Shown here in pieces: positions 2 through 8,355 of a DNA stretch of 64,000 bases. A model generated the notes under the pieces. The model did no database searches. It had not been told where the DNA came from and saw nothing but the letters and a program-made list of their open reading frames with translations. This DNA is from Alphaproteobacteria bacterium. GTDB taxonomy: Bacteria; Pseudomonadota; Alphaproteobacteria; Bin95. A program made the translations under genes and the position numbers. How positions within the stretch are numbered: the first letter of the stretch is position 1; every line of letters starts with the position of its first letter. Where the stretch lies: NCBI GenBank assembly GCA_022825195.1, contig JAJDYL010000103.1, positions 7,874-71,873 of the forward strand. Reading direction: 5' to 3'.

Positions 2-1270
2 GCGACGCTGGAGGCGCGCTACGAGCGGCCCTACCAGATGCACGCCTCGCTGGGTCCATCGGCGGCGATGGCGACGTTCGCCGACGGCCGCCTGACCGTC
101 GCGACCCACAGCCAGGGGGTCTATCTCCTGCGCCTCGCATTGGCCGATGCGCTTGGCCTGGAGCCCGAAGCGATCCGTGTCCGCCACGCGCCGGGCGCCG
201 GCTGCTACGGCCATAACGGCGCCGACGATGCGGCCTTCGACGCGGCCCTTGTCGCCCGCGCTCTGCCCGGCGCGCCGGTGCTGCTCAAATGGACGCGCGA
301 GGAGGAGCACGCCTGGGAGCCCTACGGGTCCTGCGCGTCGATGGATCTGCGCGCGAGCCTCGACGGCGACGGCAGGATTGCCGCCTGGTCGCATGAGACA
401 TACAGCGACACCTATTCCATGCGGCCCCGTCCGGGCCCCGGCAGGATCGGCGCGGCGCGACTGCTGTCCGCCCGGTTCCTGGCCGAGCCGCTGGAGCCGC
501 CGGTCATGGGCCCGGCGATGGGGCGCCATATGGGCATCCACCGCAATCTCGACCCGCTCTACGACCTGCCGGAGAAGCGGCTGGTCAAGCATCTGGTCCG
601 GGACATGCCGCTCCGGGTGTCGTCGCTGCGCTCGCTCGGCGCCTACGCCAATGTCTTCGCCATCGAGTCCTTCATGGACGAGCTTGCCGGGGAAGCGGGC
701 CGCGATCCCGTTTCCTTCCGGCTCAGCCATCTTTCGGACCCGCGCGGCCGCGCGGTCATCGAGGCGGCGGCGGCGCGTCTCGACATAGCGGGCGCGGACT
801 GTCCTGCAGGCCGCGGGCGCGGGATCGGATTCGCGCAGTACAAGAACAGCGCCGCCTATGCCGCCGTCATCATGGAAGTATCGGTCACCGATGCCGGCGG
901 AATCCGGCTCGAACGCTGCGTCATCGCCGCGGATGCGGGCGAAATCGTGGACCGCGCCGGCCTCGCCGCGCAGCTCGAAGGCGGCGTCATCCAGGCGGCA
1001 AGCTGGACGCTCCACGAAGCGGTGACATTCGACCGGGGCGGCATTACCAGCCGCGACTGGGACAGCTATCCGATCCTGGGCTTCGACAATGTGCCCAGCT
1101 TCGAGACCGTGCTGATCGACCCCGGCCGACAGCCGTTCCTCGGCGCGGGCGAGGCCACGGCCGGCCCGACCGCAGCGGCCATCGCCAACGCCGTTCACGC
1201 CGCAACCGGGCTGAGGCTGCGGCGGATTCCCTTCACGCCGGACGAGCTGCGCGCCGCAGCCCTCGCATAG
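2..1270 (+). CDS. xanthine dehydrogenase-family molybdopterin-binding subunit (isoquinoline 1-oxidoreductase beta / aldehyde oxidoreductase-like), C-terminal part; 5' end lies outside the window
   Basis: Frame of ORF 38..1270 stays open to the window edge. The C-terminal MoCo-subunit signature is recognisable (…GGVIQAASWTLHEAV…AIANAVHAATG…). Confidence 0.8.
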   Translation, partial: ATLEARYERPYQMHASLGPSAAMATFADGRLTVATHSQGVYLLRLALADALGLEPEAIRVRHAPGAGCYGHNGADDAAFDAALVARALPGAPVLLKWTREEEHAWEPYGSCASMDLRASLDGDGRIAAWSHETYSDTYSMRPRPGPGRIGAARLLSARFLAEPLEPPVMGPAMGRHMGIHRNLDPLYDLPEKRLVKHLVRDMPLRVSSLRSLGAYANVFAIESFMDELAGEAGRDPVSFRLSHLSDPRGRAVIEAAAARLDIAGADCPAGRGRGIGFAQYKNSAAYAAVIMEVSVTDAGGIRLERCVIAADAGEIVDRAGLAAQLEGGVIQAASWTLHEAVTFDRGGITSRDWDSYPILGFDNVPSFETVLIDPGRQPFLGAGEATAGPTAAAIANAVHAATGLRLRRIPFTPDELRAAALA

Positions 1271-1292: not shown

Positions 1293-2243
1293 TCAGGCGG
1301 CGGAGACGGACCCGAATTCCCTTTGCTGCGCGCGCGCCACTTTGCGAACGGTTTCGGCGAAGAACCTGAAAGCGGAAATGTCCCAGGCCGAAATGCGCGA
1401 GACGATACCGGCGCGCAACCGGGTCCTGCCGAAGTCGAGCGGCAGAGGCTTGAGGCGGGGGCCGGGGATCCTGCCGAGGAACGCGACCGGGAGTCGGGAC
1501 AGGTAAGGCCCCGTGCCCATCAGCGCCAGGCCCGCGGGACCGGCGCGGACGACTGTGCCCACGCGTTTTCCGGTTCTGGCGAAGAGTTCGTTGAGCAGTG
1601 TCGCCAGGGGCGGCTGTTCCTCGTCATCCCGCGTTCTCGCGGGAGCTTCGCAGTCGATCCAGGGCCAGTCGGCCAGGTCGTCGCAGGTTGTCTTTTCGGT
1701 GTGAAGCGGGTGGTCCGAGCGGGCGACGATGCGCGATGTCATGTTGAAGAAGCTTTCGCGCCGCAGGATCGCCGGGAGGAGCCGTTCGGCGTCGATGCGG
1801 CCGCAATGGAGATCGCTCTCGCCGTTGACGAGCAGGCGGATACCCTCGGGGAATGTCATGGCATGGAGCCTGAGCTCGACGTTCGGGAAGGCCTCATGAA
1901 ATCTGGCGACGACCTCGGGCATGACCGCCTGCATCCATGTCGGGCCTGCGGTGACCCGCAGGCCGCTGGAATGGCCCGACAGCGCCGACTTGACCCTGCC
2001 TTCGGCGGTCTCGATCTCGTGCAGGATGTGGCGGGCCTGATCTGCGGCCGTGGCGCCGAATTCGGTAAGGCGGACGCCTGTCGGGAGCCGTTCGAACAGC
2101 TTTCCGCCGAATGCCGCCTCGAGCCGGGCGATGGCGCGCGACAATGCCGGTTGCGTCATTGCGATCCGGTCCGCCGCGCCCAGAACCGTGCCGGTTTCCG
2201 CAACAATGAGGAACTTCTTCAGGTCGCTGCGCTTTTCGAACAT
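1293..2243 (-). CDS. LysR-family transcriptional regulator
   Basis: N-terminal HTH (…GAADRIAMTQPALSRAIARLE…) plus LysR substrate-binding domain; GGAGAG RBS 8 nt upstream of the ATG. Confidence 0.9.
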   Translation of the reverse strand: MFEKRSDLKKFLIVAETGTVLGAADRIAMTQPALSRAIARLEAAFGGKLFERLPTGVRLTEFGATAADQARHILHEIETAEGRVKSALSGHSSGLRVTAGPTWMQAVMPEVVARFHEAFPNVELRLHAMTFPEGIRLLVNGESDLHCGRIDAERLLPAILRRESFFNMTSRIVARSDHPLHTEKTTCDDLADWPWIDCEAPARTRDDEEQPPLATLLNELFARTGKRVGTVVRAGPAGLALMGTGPYLSRLPVAFLGRIPGPRLKPLPLDFGRTRLRAGIVSRISAWDISAFRFFAETVRKVARAQQREFGSVSAA

Positions 2244-2760: not shown

Positions 2761-3285
2761 TTACGAACTGCTGATGGCGGCAAGGATGGGCCGGATGGCG
2801 CGGTCGGCGATGTCCGCCAGTTCGTCCGGCGTGCGGTTCTGGATCGGATGGTCCACGAACACCACGGCCGGACGCACGCCCATGGCGTCGGCCTGCGCCG
2901 TCGCGGCGTCCCGGAACTCGACGGTCGCTACCGCGCAGCCGGGCATCCCCAGGCGATCGAGCTCGTTCATGTCATGCAAACTGCACGACGTGCACGAGCC
3001 TCAGTCCGCCAGCCCTTCGACAACGATGTCGCAGCGCTCCACAAGGTCCTGGATGACGCCGCGGGGAGCCGGCTTGGTGTGTGTCGGCTTGGCGAAGCGG
3101 AGCACGTTCAGGCCCCGCACCGCGAGCCGTTGCTCCACCGTGTCGAGAAACTCCACCGACCGCTCCTTGCCGATGGAAAGCAGGCCGATGGTGAGGCCGT
3201 CGAGACTCGTCGGCGGAACGACGGGCTGGCGCATGACCGGCTCCGTCTCCGCCGTCGGGTCTCGCATCGCATAGGGTTCCGTCAT
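2761..3285 (-). CDS. UGSC-motif (seleno)protein; in-frame TGA at 3001-3003 read as selenocysteine
   Basis: ORFs 3001..3342(-) and 2761..2979(-) are in the same frame and join across a single TGA, giving …VVEGLAD-U-GSCTSCSLHDMNELD…. The likely start is the internal ATG at 3283-3285 (MTEPYAMRDP…), which overlaps the upstream gene's stop as ATGA. Confidence 0.65.
2955..3000 (-). other. candidate SECIS-like stem-loop immediately 3' of the in-frame UGA
   Basis: mRNA reads UGA-GGCUCGU[GCAC-GUC-GUGC…CAUGACAUG]ACGAGCU. A 7-bp outer stem starts 1 nt after the UGA and encloses shorter internal pairings. Confidence 0.4.
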
Positions 3286-4886
3286 GTACCGATCTCCTTG
3301 GTTACAGGGTCCACCTGGCCGGCAATCCGCATTCCGGACCATCCGCCGATCACCGCCGAGAACAGGCCCGCCGGCCCGCCGGCGCGCGCGATGATGAATG
3401 TGCCTTCGCGGAATTTGTCGATCATTTCATCCTCGCGGCCGGGGTCTATCCCCTCGGCCAGTCCGCCCGCCCCCCGCACGACCTCGCTTCCGGGGCGCTT
3501 GAGGGCAGAGATGAGGGCGTCCTCGATCTCGCTGCGGCCCCAGCCGTCGTCCTTGTAGATTGCATGGTGCTCGGGCGAGAGCACCAGCAGGGCTCCGCCG
3601 AATTCGCAGAGCTTCGGGTGGTTCACGTTCCACAGGTAGCGGACCAGCGAGGCCGTCAGTTCTTCCGCCGTCCGGCTTTTCTGGTCCACGAACCCGCTCA
3701 CCCCTTCGCCGTGGAACAGGGTGACGGCCGATGCGCCCGGCCGGATGCCGCGCGAGACCGAAAGCGGCGTCCAGTCCGGGTCGGTCTCGTCCTCGGCGAA
3801 GCAGAAGGTGTATTTGCCCGGATTGCCCTGCATTGCGCGGTCGATTTCGCCCGGCCGGCCGCCGCCGACATTGCGGATGATGAGCTGGAAGGCCCGGCCG
3901 ATGGTCGCGTTGGCCCGGTTGCCCTGGCCGAGCGCGTTCAGGCCCCAGTTCATGCCGATGCGCCGCGCGACGGGGCCGTTCACGATGATGACCGGCCCGG
4001 CGAAATGGGTCGTGCAGAGCAGGCCGTGCATGGAGAAGCCCGGTATCAGCGCCGCTTCGACCGCCGCGAGAACGGTCGGGAAATATTCGGGCCGGCAGCC
4101 GGCCATCACGGCATTGATGGCCGCCTTCTCCACGGTGCAGGGCGCGAGGTTGGGCGGAATATCCCCGATAATTTCGTCCGCCGCCCGCGTCGTGCCCGCC
4201 AGCATCCGCGCGACGCGCAGGTCGGTCGGCGGCACGATCGGCAGCCCGTCCGTCCAGCCGCGGTCGAAGGCCGTCTCCATCGGGTCGTCATGGTCCTCCA
4301 CGACGATCCGGCGCGCCGAAAGCGGGATGTCGCCGAACCGCACGGCCAGCCTCTCCGGCATCCCGAATTCGACCGACAGAGACCCGCATCCGGGCTGGTT
4401 GTCCGGCAGGCTCTCGCCGAGATCGGCGCGGCCTGTCAGTGCGCGCCACTCGGCCTTGTTCCATCCGATCGCACGTTCGGCTTCGCTGCCGCCGCTGAAG
4501 CGGATCAGCGTCGGCACGGTCTCGATGTCGAGCCGGTAGGAGAGCTCCAGGTCGCCGTCATGCCGGGGGGCCGCACCCTCGGGAAAGGCGGGATCGTCCT
4601 GCGTGACCGCTACGGCGCCCCCCGCCGCCAGTTCCGCAAGGAGCGGCGCAACGAGGACGCAGGTCGGGCAGTCCCGCTTGACCACGGCAAGCAGGCCGTC
4701 GGAAGGAAGGGCGTCGCGCCAGCCGGTCACTCGTCCGTCTCCATGTTCGGTATGCGCAGTCTGCACGGAATCCGCACCGGACTCCAATTTTCGCCGGTCG
4801 CTTTGATAAAGTGTTTGCCAAGTGTATCTGTACACGGTACACCTTGGGGCAAATCCATAATGTCTGGTTGCGTGAAGTTTCGACAC
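3282..4886 (-). CDS. thioredoxin/glutaredoxin-like CxxC domain fused to a large uncharacterised C-terminal domain; true start uncertain
   Basis: …LLAVVKRDCPTCVLVAPLL… is a CPxC redox motif in a beta-strand/helix context. The stop is ATGA-coupled to the UGSC gene. The annotated GTG start lies inside the higB remnant, so the real start is probably further in. Confidence 0.6.
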   Translation of the reverse strand: MSKLHATRHYGFAPRCTVYRYTWQTLYQSDRRKLESGADSVQTAHTEHGDGRVTGWRDALPSDGLLAVVKRDCPTCVLVAPLLAELAAGGAVAVTQDDPAFPEGAAPRHDGDLELSYRLDIETVPTLIRFSGGSEAERAIGWNKAEWRALTGRADLGESLPDNQPGCGSLSVEFGMPERLAVRFGDIPLSARRIVVEDHDDPMETAFDRGWTDGLPIVPPTDLRVARMLAGTTRAADEIIGDIPPNLAPCTVEKAAINAVMAGCRPEYFPTVLAAVEAALIPGFSMHGLLCTTHFAGPVIIVNGPVARRIGMNWGLNALGQGNRANATIGRAFQLIIRNVGGGRPGEIDRAMQGNPGKYTFCFAEDETDPDWTPLSVSRGIRPGASAVTLFHGEGVSGFVDQKSRTAEELTASLVRYLWNVNHPKLCEFGGALLVLSPEHHAIYKDDGWGRSEIEDALISALKRPGSEVVRGAGGLAEGIDPGREDEMIDKFREGTFIIARAGGPAGLFSAVIGGWSGMRIAGQVDPVTKEIGT

Positions 4887-5065
4887 AAAGGGCTACAAGC
4901 GTTCTTCGAGCGGGACGAAGCTCGGCGCCTGCCCGGATACCTCTCCATGCCCTGAAGGGCGACCGGCGGGGCCAGTGGAGCATCCGCGTGTCCGGCAATT
5001 GGCGCGTCACCTGTCGCTTCGTCGAAGGTGGGGCCGTCGATATCGATCCGGTCGACTACCATTAG
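4860..5065 (+). pseudogene. higB: higB (HigB/RelE-type killer protein) remnant, frameshifted and shortened
   Basis: The N-terminal MSGCVKFRHKGLQAFFERDEARRLPGY is in one frame. The C-terminal …LHALKGDRRGQWSIRVSGNWRVTCRFVEGGAVDIDPVDYH is in another frame. Total length is about 206 nt against about 280 nt for intact HigB. Confidence 0.6.
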
Positions 5066-5077
5066 GGAGAGACGCCA

Positions 5078-5350
5078 ATGACCGACGCGATGATGAACCC
5101 GTCCCATCCGGGAGAAACGATCCGTGATTGCATCGAGGAAATGGGTTGGACCGTGACATATGCCGCCGGACAGTTGGGCGTGGCGAGGCATACCCTCTCG
5201 CGCCTGCTCAACGGCCATTCGGGTGTTTCGCCGTCGATGGCGCTGGCGCTGGAGCGGGTCGGCTGGAGCAATGCCGGTTTCTGGATGCGGCGGCAGGCCT
5301 CCTGGGACCTGGCGCAGGCAAGGTTGCGCGAAAGCACCAGAGCCGCGTGA
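5078..5350 (+). CDS. higA: HigA-family antitoxin (XRE HTH)
   Basis: …NPSHPGETIRDCIEEMGWTVTYAAGQLGVARHTLSRLLNGHSGVSPSMALALE… is the classic HigA HTH, 12 nt after the higB remnant. Confidence 0.85.
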   Translation: MTDAMMNPSHPGETIRDCIEEMGWTVTYAAGQLGVARHTLSRLLNGHSGVSPSMALALERVGWSNAGFWMRRQASWDLAQARLRESTRAA

Positions 5351-5432: not shown

Positions 5433-7058
5433 TCACAGTGCCGGCGCGCCTTGCATCGAAACCGTATCCGCCTCCATCGCCTCGGCCATGCGGCGCAGTT
5501 CGGCTTTCTGGATCTTGGTGCCGTTGGCGCTGTAGGTGACGGGGAAGGCGTCTATGGCGGCGGCTCGGACCGGGACCTTGTAGTTGGCCATGGTCTCGCG
5601 GCACCAGGCGAGAAGCGCGGCTTCGTCGTAGAAGGGTTTCCCCGCCGGGCGCACGAAGGCGAAGGCGCGGGGCCCTCGCGGGGTGGCGACGCCGACGACC
5701 TGGCAGCCGGCGACCGAAGGATGGGTCTCGATATGCGCCTCGATCTCGCTCGGGGCCGTAAGGAAGCCGGCGAGTCGCAGCGTGTCGCCCATGCGCGCCT
5801 CATAGATGAAGCTGCCGTCGGCGCGCATCCGCCCGGCATCCCCCGTGCGCAGGAAGCCGTCTTCGGTCATTGCCGCCGCTGTCGCTTCCGGGTTGCTCTC
5901 ATAGCGGAGGAACAGGCTGGGGCAGCGCATTTCGACTTCGCCCGAGACGCCCGGCGGGCAGAGTTCGCCGGTCTCGACATTGCGCACCCGGACGGCGGCT
6001 TCGGGCGCCACCGGATAGCCGCCGCCGGCAAGGCGGTCCTCCAGCGGCGCGTCGATCTTCTGGACGGCCATCAGCGCGCCCACCTCGCTCATGCCGTAAA
6101 GGCCGATCAGCGGCACGCCGCGCGCGAGCGTCCGAGCCGCGAAATCCTCCAGGGTCGGGTTGAACAGGGCGTAGCCGCACAATCTGAGGCTGGGGAAGGG
6201 GATCGGTTCCTCCCGCAGGGCCAGCATGCCGGCATACATGTCGTCCGTGCCCATGAAATGGGTGACCTTGTGGCGGCGCACGGCCTCGGCGGCCTCGCCC
6301 GGCGTGAACAGCGGCGCCAGCACGTTCGGCGCGCCCGCGGCCGCCGTCGCCATCATGGTCGAGAAGCCGAACACCCCGCAAAGCGGCGTCGCCTGGTAGC
6401 TCGCCGCGCCCGCCCGGTCCCAGCCGAAGGCGGCAACGCAGTCGCGGGCATGGCGCGTGACCGGCGCCTGTCCATGCAGCACGAATTTGGGTTTCGAGGT
6501 CGTGCCGGAGGTGGTGAAGACGTTGCAGGGGTCGTCCGGCGTTGCGCGGTCCCCGGCCATCGGGAGCGCCTCGAACAGTGTCCGCACCGCCGTCGCGGGC
6601 TTGCCGGCCACCCGCTCCGGAACCGCAGCCTCGCCCTCGTCGTAGACCAGCACCCGCTCAAGGCCGGACAACGCCTCGTAACCGATCTCCGCCAGCAGGC
6701 CGGCAAAGTCGATATCCTTGAAGCCCGGCCACATGGCGAGCGCCTTCGCGCCCGACCGCGACAGGATGTCCGCGACCTCCAGCGCCCGGAAGCGGGTGTT
6801 GACCGCGACGGCGACTGCGCCGAGGCGTCCGAGCGCGAAGTAGAGCGCGAGCCAGGCCGGCACGTTCGGCAACCAGAGCGCGACCTTGTCGCCGCGCCCG
6901 ATTCCGAGACCCGCCAATGCGGATGCGGCCCGGCGCGACCGGTCGAGCAGGTCGCCGTAGCTCCAGCTCCCGCCGCCATAGAGCAGCGCCGGCGCGTCCC
7001 CGGCTTCCGCGGCGACGCGCTCAAGCAGCGCGGAGAGGGTCTCCCGCTTCCCGGTCAT
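5433..7058 (-). CDS. AMP-dependent synthetase/ligase (acyl-CoA synthetase family)
   Basis: AMP-binding motif TSGTTSKPK and C-terminal lysine region; start overlaps the upstream stop by 4 nt. Confidence 0.9.
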   Translation of the reverse strand: MTGKRETLSALLERVAAEAGDAPALLYGGGSWSYGDLLDRSRRAASALAGLGIGRGDKVALWLPNVPAWLALYFALGRLGAVAVAVNTRFRALEVADILSRSGAKALAMWPGFKDIDFAGLLAEIGYEALSGLERVLVYDEGEAAVPERVAGKPATAVRTLFEALPMAGDRATPDDPCNVFTTSGTTSKPKFVLHGQAPVTRHARDCVAAFGWDRAGAASYQATPLCGVFGFSTMMATAAAGAPNVLAPLFTPGEAAEAVRRHKVTHFMGTDDMYAGMLALREEPIPFPSLRLCGYALFNPTLEDFAARTLARGVPLIGLYGMSEVGALMAVQKIDAPLEDRLAGGGYPVAPEAAVRVRNVETGELCPPGVSGEVEMRCPSLFLRYESNPEATAAAMTEDGFLRTGDAGRMRADGSFIYEARMGDTLRLAGFLTAPSEIEAHIETHPSVAGCQVVGVATPRGPRAFAFVRPAGKPFYDEAALLAWCRETMANYKVPVRAAAIDAFPVTYSANGTKIQKAELRRMAEAMEADTVSMQGAPAL

Positions 7059-8083
7059 GCCCGGACGAAACGGAAGACGTCGTCGGGTCCCCGCTCGCGC
7101 TCGACACGGCCCCCATGCCAGAGATTGTGGAGATGGGCGATGGCTTCGCCGATGGCGAAGGACTGCTGGTGCAGGTCGAGCGGGCGGTGGAAGAAGACCG
7201 GCAGCAGGTCGATGGCGTGTTGCGGTTCCGCCAGCGCTTCGCAGCCGTCGTCGAGGCGGACCCGGTGGTGGTCGCGAAGCTGGGCCAGCCGCTCATGCAG
7301 GCCATAGAACGGGCGGTCGTGGCTGCAGAGCGTGAAGGTGTCGTCGGGCAGGTGGGCAAAGGCGCGGGTGCTGTCCAGGAAGTGTTGCAGCGGGTCGCCG
7401 TCGGGCTCGACGAAATGCACGGACACATTGGTCGTGATGCGCGGCAGCACCTGGTCGCCGGAGATCAGCAGCTTCGACTCCGGGCAGGCGAGGCAGACAT
7501 GCTCCGGCGAATGGCCCGAGCCGATGATCGCCTGCCATTCCCGCTCGCCGATGCGGATGCGGTCGCCATGCTGGATGCGGTGATAGACGATGGGCGGGCG
7601 GACCACGTTCTGGGCGTAGAAATTCCCGCGCCCGCGCATGGCGTCCACCGTCGAGGTGGCCATGCCGTTGCGCCGCCAGAAGCGCAGCATCTCCTCCATG
7701 TTGCGTTCTCTGGCGTCGAAGGCGAAATGCGACCAGAGCCATTCCGAAAGGCTCATCCAGAGCTCGGCTTCGGGGAAGCGCGTCAGCAGCCATTGCGCGA
7801 GGCCCATATGGTCCGGGTGGAAATGCGTGACGAGCACGCGGCGCACCGGCCGCCCGGCCAGCAGCGTCCGGATCAGCGTCTCCCAGATGTCGCGGACACC
7901 ATCCTTGTTGAGCCCGCAATCGACGACGGTCCAGCCGTCGCCGTCCTCCAGCAGGTATAGGTTGATGTGGTCGAGAACGAAGGGCAGCGGCATCCGCACC
8001 CACCAGATCCCCTCCGCCACCTGCCGCGCCGCGCCTTCCGGCGGCGGCTCGTCATAGGGGTACTCGACGACGACGGCGTTCAC
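7055..8083 (-). CDS. MBL-fold metallo-hydrolase
   Basis: HFHPDHMG metal-binding motif. Start trimmed to the GTG (VNAVVVEYPYDEPP…) that overlaps the ubiK stop as GTGA; the ORF-track 5' extension is low-complexity. Confidence 0.75.
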   Translation of the reverse strand: MNAVVVEYPYDEPPPEGAARQVAEGIWWVRMPLPFVLDHINLYLLEDGDGWTVVDCGLNKDGVRDIWETLIRTLLAGRPVRRVLVTHFHPDHMGLAQWLLTRFPEAELWMSLSEWLWSHFAFDARERNMEEMLRFWRRNGMATSTVDAMRGRGNFYAQNVVRPPIVYHRIQHGDRIRIGEREWQAIIGSGHSPEHVCLACPESKLLISGDQVLPRITTNVSVHFVEPDGDPLQHFLDSTRAFAHLPDDTFTLCSHDRPFYGLHERLAQLRDHHRVRLDDGCEALAEPQHAIDLLPVFFHRPLDLHQQSFAIGEAIAHLHNLWHGGRVERERGPDDVFRFVRA

Positions 8084-8355
8084 TTGCCGGTTTCTGCCAG
8101 CCGGGCCTCCAGGGCGGCCACGCGCGCTTCGAGCCGTTCCTGCTCCATGCGCGCGTTCTGCGCCATCTCCTGCACGGCCTCGAAATCCTCGCGCCGCACC
8201 AGGTCCATCGAATCGAGCATGCTCTGCAGGCGGTCGCGCACCATCGACTCCATCTCGTCGCGAACGGCGCCGGCCGCGCCGGCCGCGCCCGAGGCCACGC
8301 GGGCCAGATCGTCGAAGATTCGCTTTCCGGTTTGCATGGGTCCGACTCCGGGCAT
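8080..8355 (-). CDS. ubiK: ubiquinone biosynthesis accessory factor UbiK (YqiC-like coiled-coil protein)
   Basis: MQTGKRIFDDLARVASGAAGAAGAVRDE…LEARVAALEARL resembles the UbiK/YqiC family. Confidence 0.75.
   Translation of the reverse strand: MPGVGPMQTGKRIFDDLARVASGAAGAAGAVRDEMESMVRDRLQSMLDSMDLVRREDFEAVQEMAQNARMEQERLEARVAALEARLAETGK

Follow-up and report, generated by a model that had tools for sequence, protein, structure and literature searches.

The 64-kb window analyzed here (64,000 nt of contig JAJDYL010000103.1 from an alphaproteobacterial genome assembly, GCA_022825195.1) contains a minus-strand gene of the UGSC family (2761..3285) that very probably encodes a 174-amino-acid (aa) selenoprotein, its in-frame TGA (3003..3001) being decoded as selenocysteine (Sec) at residue 95 (U95), as judged from conservation among related sequences. 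The gene directly follows a larger gene whose product combines a thioredoxin-fold domain with a long C-terminal domain without a known family. We consider it probable that the two proteins form one redox enzyme of two subunits, likely a thioredoxin-coupled reductase to which the UGSC protein would contribute the selenol.

The UGSC reading frame opens at an ATG (3285..3283) that overlaps the TGA stop codon of the upstream partner gene as ATGA (3285..3282), and by sequence reading it is preceded by a Shine-Dalgarno sequence, AAGGAG (3294..3299, minus strand), which lies within the 3' end of the partner gene. The same GAGAT...ATGA junction was present in 60 of 81 rows of the locus alignment (80 loci and the window), and in the remaining rows the two genes were separated by gaps of at most 87 nt. 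From the ATG, 94 codons lead to the TGA, after which the frame continues as GSCTSCSLHDMNELD... to a TAA (2763..2761), placing U95 in the motif D-U-G-S-C-T-S-C-S-L-H-D. An automatic list of open reading frames (ORFs) had cut this gene into two pieces, 3001..3342(-) and 2761..2979(-), which a first-pass annotation made from the letters alone had rejoined across the TGA. Both the coordinates and the joined 174-aa sequence given there were correct, as was the remark that the “start” of the downstream piece is a mere internal TTG; this piece has neither an ATG nor a ribosome-binding site of its own. The split itself was also described accurately, with the refinement that translation begins at the ATG at 3285 and not at the ATG at 3342 of the listed ORF. 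The locus should accordingly be annotated as one 174-aa selenoprotein gene, with a transl_except at 3003..3001, and not as a stub of 94 to 113 aa followed by a spurious 72-aa ORF. When the entire window was scanned, no other in-frame TGA with such a recoding signature was found.

The UGSC family has been known since 2005. For profile and database searches, we used a version of the joined protein in which U was replaced by C. This sequence matched the Pfam profile PF24696 (“UGSC family”) with 119.8 bits (gathering score, 25; E = 1.7e-34; residues 7 to 171 on profile positions 2 to 170 of 172), and the NCBIfam profile NF041046 (“UGSC family (seleno)protein”) with 120.2 bits (E = 7e-35). The protein also carries the [U/C]-G-S-C motif of the family, and these matches, together with the alignment of the TGA with Cys codons, uphold the first-pass assignment to the UGSC selenoproteins. 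The origin given there for the family, in selenoproteome surveys of marine metagenomes, agrees with the literature (PMC2398784, PMC13188914). A “UGSC-containing protein” was described from the Sargasso Sea and Global Ocean Sampling (GOS) selenoproteomes; the GOS data held 255 Sec and 21 Cys sequences, and the family ranked among the most abundant, especially in non-marine samples (PMC2398784). It was described as having “likely a Trx-like fold,” and some reads were fused to an “Unknown_1” domain (PMC2398784). UGSC proteins have been listed in 26 sequenced organisms (PMC5029168) and in members of the Geodermatophilaceae in which UAG is recoded as Sec (PMC5330540), and reviews from 2022 and 2026 still assign the family no function (PMC9312934; PMC13188914). 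The window gene shares with this family (PF24696/NF041046) the same full-length domain and D-U-G-S-C motif, and it fits a pattern in which Sec forms far outnumber Cys forms, a selenocysteine insertion sequence (SECIS) hairpin lies right past the UGA and the hosts are aquatic or soil Proteobacteria. Nothing essential differs, and the window holds an unremarkable representative of an established selenoprotein family without an assigned function, novel as a member only.

We then compared the locus with its relatives. When one genome per GTDB species was scanned, the relatives numbered at least 512. In the best 80 of these loci, in L001 (81 related loci in all), and in the window itself, a TGA stands at the same codon and is followed by GSCTSCS[LV]HD and a further 78 to 88 open and conserved codons. 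The hosts are mostly metagenome-assembled genomes (MAGs) of Alphaproteobacteria, but also include Burkholderiales, Gammaproteobacteria, Chloroflexota, and Acidimicrobiia. Among 5.8 billion proteins searched, 41 relatives of the window protein were found. Thirty-nine of these closest entries are stubs of 95 to 97 aa that end in ...LAD, cut exactly at the TGA, just as the first-pass annotation had predicted for the output of a standard gene caller. The other two are full-length Cys forms that read SDCGSCTSCSTHD across the TGA junction. When the search was started from a Cys form, 538 more relatives were found, the best 120 of which are all approximately full length (170 to 198 aa). As had also been anticipated, the alignment with the Cys homologues runs through the junction without interruption; they read SDCGSCTSC where the window reads LAD-U-GSCTSC. 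In most of the loci, TGA is also the normal stop codon of the neighboring gene, and the genetic code has therefore not been reassigned.

Bacterial SECIS elements are generally described as stem-loops that start some 11 to 20 nt past the UGA and carry a G in the apical loop (criteria of the bSECISearch type). RNA folding downstream of the TGA, which had been suggested as a check, revealed a stable and conserved hairpin that agrees with this description in position, size, and its G-containing loop. The 71 nt around the TGA fold at a dG of -36.2 kcal/mol (z = -3.6), and the RNAalifold consensus structure of 75 distinct sequences is an 8-bp stem, GUCGUGCA-GUN-UGCAYGAC, that begins 12 nt after the UGA and places the apical loop 19 nt from it. 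In the window, this core hairpin (GUCGUGCA / UGCAUGAC, with a GUU loop) occupies 2971..2989 (minus strand), and in the minimum free energy fold an extended stem-loop (2953..3009, minus strand) encloses the UGA and forms the putative lower SECIS stems in this genome. The G and U of the apical GUN loop are invariant. The upper stem stays paired in the 75 distinct sequences, with swaps between G-U, G-C, and A-U at columns 24-36 and 21-39; CG-to-GC swaps also occur in the lower stem (columns 12-48, 15-45, and 3-55), where the register varies by lineage and many cells are unpaired. The codons that make up the hairpin are unusually constrained at synonymous sites. At codons +4 to +10 (T-S-C-S-L-H-D), the frequency of the predominant third base is 0.91 to 1.00, compared with only 0.42 to 0.77 for equally invariant residues elsewhere in the gene. 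Within the stem-loop, Cys is encoded by TGC and Ser by AGT in 81 of 81 sequences, while the Cys at +3, which lies outside the frozen codons, is TGC in 52 and TGT in 29. These frozen sites are the strongest evidence for selection acting on the RNA. At gathering thresholds, Rfam gave no match at the UGSC locus, either to a SECIS or to any other RNA family.

If the TGA were a genuine stop, the locus would encode a 94-aa protein and a separate small ORF, or a decaying pseudogene. The two pieces of the standard ORF call, the 95-aa length of most database relatives, and the failure to see Sec machinery in the window would all fit this explanation. However, the 79 codons past the TGA are open, in frame, and strongly conserved as protein in all 81 loci, the Cys homologues run continuously over the TGA site, the single Pfam UGSC domain covers both sides of it, and the downstream piece could start only at an internal TTG. 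Moreover, the same TGA would not persist in a pseudogene across several phyla. We rejected a genuine stop, a pseudogene, and a sequencing error because the same TGA and the same conserved open frame downstream of it recur in 81 loci, and we regard the first two as highly improbable. An erroneous base in a Cys codon (TGC or TGT) of the window, introduced by sequencing or assembly, is more improbable still, since Cys-form UGSC members do exist but the nearest relatives from independent assemblies, 86 to 91% identical (L002 to L010 and L018), all carry the TGA and share a feature peculiar to the Sec clade, the SECIS hairpin with its frozen synonymous sites.

In two unrelated lineages, the genes for Sec synthesis and decoding adjoin the UGSC pair. 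In a Magnetovibrio MAG (L020, 36..2523), tRNA-Sec, selA, and selB lie just upstream of the pair, and in an Acidimicrobiaceae MAG (L081, 6529..10653), tRNA-Sec lies 25 nt after the UGSC gene and is followed by selA, selB, and selD. These genes were detected by tblastn with Escherichia coli SelA, SelB, and SelD sequences as probes, which gave selA/selB(/selD) hits at both loci, and the tRNA-Sec genes were detected with ARAGORN; the two loci serve as a positive control for the same searches in the window. This arrangement suggests that the Sec trait and the UGSC selenoprotein may travel together.

The gene upstream of the UGSC gene (3282..4730, minus strand) encodes a 482-aa protein. It was listed as an ORF of 3282..4886, while the actual start is a GTG at 4730, located after a GGAG, and the homologues P0042 and P0043 begin at this position. 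The N-terminal domain has a thioredoxin fold and a CPTC redox motif (C21..C24; 4659..4670, minus strand), in which C21 never varies and C24 is retained by at least 90% of 44 partner homologues. The C-terminal domain of about 360 aa has no known family, and its cysteines C212 and C310 are invariant, as are many of its polar residues; over residues ~120 to 482 (window 3282..4370, minus strand), C115, C212, and C310 were recorded as invariant or near-invariant. At least 8,000 homologue clusters (at 90% identity) make up the partner family; its members are 474 to 487 aa long, none has a Pfam domain, and depositors label the homologues “thioredoxin family protein.” A partner gene with 55 to 91% identity lies directly upstream of UGSC in 80 of the 80 loci that have upstream DNA, and Cys-form UGSC genes have the same upstream neighbor, with a length of 488 to 491 aa.

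The association extends to single polypeptides and to alternative arrangements. In a set of 1.84 billion representative proteins, a profile search detected 1,779 representatives of the UGSC superfamily, and the best 150 were inspected for fusions. In P0347, P0368, P0412, P0417, and P0430, one polypeptide contains a Cys-form UGSC domain followed by the partner C-terminal domain; comparison of the partner profile with P0368 by hhalign gave a probability of 100% (E = 2.6e-49, 41% identity). In these fusions, the third Cys of the UxxCxxC motif is replaced by W or A. A NifU-like CxxC domain was present in P0395 (above the Pfam cut-off) and in P0417 (a weak match, below threshold). A further variant was found at L061 (2182..3865), where a second UGSC-type pair lies in tandem directly upstream of the canonical pair: the paralogous partner, of 346 aa, has no thioredoxin domain and terminates in ...ACVDC, and the second UGSC-like selenoprotein gene has its TGA at 3617, reads GD-U-GSCSSCSLHD, and matches the Pfam UGSC profile with 163 bits. 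The recurrence of a CxxC module, the UGSC domain, and the partner C-terminal domain in different arrangements is strong evidence that the three act together.

Some stand-alone Cys-form members (for example, P0317, P0340, and P0413) are extended at the C terminus, with cysteines clustered at the end of the extension (…DC..C or …C..AC); these extensions may be mobile redox tails replacing the thioredoxin module. Long upstream open frames in the 81 loci were also considered as candidate partner-UGSC fusions, but in these the frames differ or a stop intervenes, and P0292, an apparent partner-to-UGSC fusion, looks frameshifted and was set aside.

The fold of the UGSC protein was modeled on the Cys homologue P0001, which is 51% identical, with the two halves of the window protein included as alignment rows. 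The model (pLDDT 88, pTM 0.83) contains a five-fold beta-alpha repeat and predicts a flavodoxin/Rossmann-like alpha/beta fold for UGSC proteins, not a thioredoxin-like one. The Sec position falls directly after strand 3, at the N terminus of the long helix 3. The nearest structural neighbors are Mmp7 and McrC, of the methyl-coenzyme M reductase (MCR) activation complex, and B12-binding domains, while a search of the UGSC profile against PDB sequences gave no match. In an alignment of 47 members with 25 to 46% identity, P10, K66, D94, C/U95, G96, C98, D105, G113, F124, G136, and P147 are near-invariant. The placement of U95 and C98 at a helix N terminus would be the geometry of a redox-active selenol/thiol couple.

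The motif following Sec resembles that of selenoprotein B of the glycine, sarcosine, betaine, and D-proline reductases. GrdB, GrdF, and GrdH carry UxxCxxC starting from Sec, and PrdB carries UxxC (PMC6778437, PMC13188914); in the window protein, the corresponding sequence is U-G-S-C-T-S-C, with Sec in register. We scanned 44 UGSC members, 35 of them full length and 9 of them N-terminal stubs, with NCBIfam profiles. The GrdB (TIGR01917) and GrdF (NF040794) profiles gave subthreshold matches around the Sec position in 35 of the 44, namely, in all the full-length members and in no stub. GrdH (NF040795) was matched below threshold in 31 and TIGR01918 in 26, with a best E value of 5e-5 overall and of 9.5e-4 for TIGR01918, where all scores were below the 65-bit cut-off. 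For the window protein, the match to TIGR01917 (14.1 bits against a cut-off of 602, E = 0.017) places residues 82 to 151 on profile positions 333 to 398. We also collected 80 prdB loci from metagenomes; the gene could be parsed in 79, all of which read ...LTAG-U-GTCHR...EEAGIPT. An hhalign comparison of a diverse UGSC alignment with 57 distinct PrdB sequences aligned 38 columns, Sec on Sec and DCGSC on GCGTC, with a probability of 60% (E = 8.5e-5). UGSC and selenoprotein B thus have in common a strand-[G/D]-U-G-[S/T]-C-helix-“G(I/V/M)P”-strand module with Sec in register, and UGSC plausibly shares the Sec module of GrdB and PrdB. Like selenoprotein B, UGSC would pair with another subunit that binds the substrate and would take its electrons from a thioredoxin-type source, and by analogy UGSC probably works in a similar way.

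UGSC is nevertheless outside the GrdB/PrdB family. It is 174 aa long compared with ~240 to 435 aa for selenoprotein B, and it scores far below the cut-offs of those families. Its partner shows no relation to PrdA and GrdE, the pyruvoyl proenzymes of the selenoprotein B systems; comparison of the partner profile with PrdA from the PrdB loci gave an hhalign probability of 0.05%. Whereas selenoprotein B is found in amino acid-fermenting Firmicutes, the hosts of UGSC are mostly Alpha- and Betaproteobacteria, and no grdA- or grdC-type genes lie near UGSC.

Together, these observations are consistent with the following mechanism. A hairpin within the T-S-C-S-L-H-D codons of the mRNA would act as the SECIS and recruit the SelB/Sec-tRNA complex, so that the UGA is read as Sec. 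Translation of UGSC would be coupled to that of the 482-aa partner through the ATGA overlap, and the two products would assemble into a complex. As the nucleophile, the selenol of U95 would attack a substrate held by the partner C-terminal domain, and a U95-C98 selenenyl-sulfide would form, possibly relayed to C101. The CPTC thioredoxin domain of the partner, and in the end a cellular reductant, would then return the oxidized UGSC subunit to its reduced state. Such a cycle would correspond to the chemistry of selenoprotein B in the glycine and D-proline reductases, which shares its Sec motif with UGSC. Thioredoxin-coupled cysteine-relay reductases, such as the LMW-PTP-type ArsC of pI258 and the thioredoxin-fused methionine sulfoxide reductases, also offer a comparison. 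They resemble the proposed enzyme in having an alpha/beta (flavodoxin-like) domain with the nucleophile at a strand/helix junction, a resolving-cysteine relay, and a thioredoxin module, in some cases fused, for the last reduction step, but they show no sequence or family relation to UGSC, which uses Sec and has the thioredoxin on a separate polypeptide with a large unassigned domain.

The main rival to a reductase is that UGSC, as a real selenoprotein, uses its U/C-x2-C-x2-C-x2-H motif to bind a metal or an Fe-S cluster and acts as a carrier, sensor, or scaffold, with the partner being the metallo- or cluster-dependent enzyme that it serves. The regular Sec/Cys/Cys/His spacing would suit this role, as would Mmp7, McrC, and the B12-binding domains as the best structural neighbors and the NifU-like domain fused to some family members. 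The partner C-terminal domain also showed a weak Foldseek likeness to class I [4Fe-4S] fumarate hydratases (probability 0.3 to 0.7) and contains invariant cysteines (C115, C212, and C310). Profile comparison with E. coli FumA by hhalign gave no support to this likeness, however, and C115 is missing from the fused and thioredoxin-less forms. Of the thiol(ate)s in the motif, only U/C95 and C98 are kept across the superfamily, which fits a selenolthiol or dithiol redox pair better than a cluster site, and a CxxC module of the thioredoxin type, or its equivalent, invariably comes with the partner. On balance, we regard a metal- or cluster-binding role as unlikely. Less probable again, and by a wide step, is that UGSC is a stand-alone thiol oxidoreductase or antioxidant of the thioredoxin fold without a dedicated partner, as the selenoproteome literature assumes. 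Its UxxC motif does occur in many Trx-like and Prx-like selenoproteins, but the constant presence of the partner upstream and the existence of fusions speak against such a role.

Several observations weigh against the interpretation that we favor, an obligate pair acting as a thioredoxin-coupled selenoenzyme related to selenoprotein B. The NF041046 score of the window protein lies 4.8 bits below the equivalog cut-off of 125, a value that P0001, a genuine Cys form, does not reach either (123.8 bits). No selA, selB, selD, or tRNA-Sec gene was found in the 64-kb window (ARAGORN, Rfam, and tblastn, with all E values above 0.1), where tRNA-Thr was the only tRNA (ARAGORN/Rfam), and the Sec competence of this organism is inferred from conservation alone. 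The link to GrdB and PrdB spans ~40 to 70 aligned residues with moderate statistics (best E = 5e-5; probability 60%) and could reflect convergence on a similar strand-U-x-x-C-helix module; we consider true homology between UGSC and selenoprotein B an even call. In the wider superfamily, W or A frequently stands in place of C101, the last Cys of the UxxCxxC motif. Beyond thioredoxin, the partner has no similarity to any Pfam, NCBIfam, or PDB family, and because it resembles neither PrdA/GrdE nor any other such family, the catalytic chemistry is unconstrained. Finally, no third conserved neighbor points to a substrate: genes for SDR, CoA-transferase, enoyl-CoA hydratase, acyl-CoA dehydrogenase, AMP-ligase, TctC, and GntR proteins each occur in 1 to 15 of ~71 independent loci, which is too weak and generic.

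In the window, the UGSC pair is flanked by genes for a LysR regulator (1293..2243, minus strand), an AMP-binding acyl-CoA synthetase (5433..7058, minus strand), and a metallo-beta-lactamase-fold protein (7055..8104, minus strand), and a fragment of a molybdopterin-binding subunit of the xanthine dehydrogenase/aldehyde oxidase type lies at the window edge (38..1270, plus strand). These flanking molybdopterin, LysR, acyl-CoA synthetase, and metallo-beta-lactamase genes are not consistently linked to the pair elsewhere. A higB/higA-like toxin-antitoxin pair (4811..5065 and 5078..5350, both plus strand) lies between the partner and acyl-CoA synthetase genes, and the pair recurs in L003, L005, and L010, again upstream of the partner gene. 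The antitoxin is of the HTH_3 type. The HigB-like toxin matches Pfam over its C-terminal half only, with the N-terminal half unmatched, and is possibly degenerate; the homologous region of L005 is split into several tblastn pieces.

Published accounts of UGSC describe a “Trx-like” fold, an “Unknown_1” fusion, and no conserved neighboring partner, in contrast to the Rossmann/flavodoxin-like model and the ever-present partner reported here. The upstream thioredoxin-fused partner, the predicted flavodoxin/Rossmann-like fold, and the alignment of the Sec motif with selenoprotein B appear to be new. The obligate coupled partner, the natural fusions, the predicted non-thioredoxin fold, the Sec motif in register with GrdB and PrdB, and the occasional linkage to selC-selA-selB provide leads that reduce the question of UGSC function to a two-protein biochemical experiment. 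Taken as a whole, we tentatively propose, at somewhat less than even confidence, that UGSC and its partner may constitute an unrecognized and very widespread two-subunit selenoenzyme of aerobic or facultative aquatic and soil bacteria, a thioredoxin-coupled reductase whose Sec module would share ancestry with selenoprotein B but whose catalytic domain and substrate would be different.

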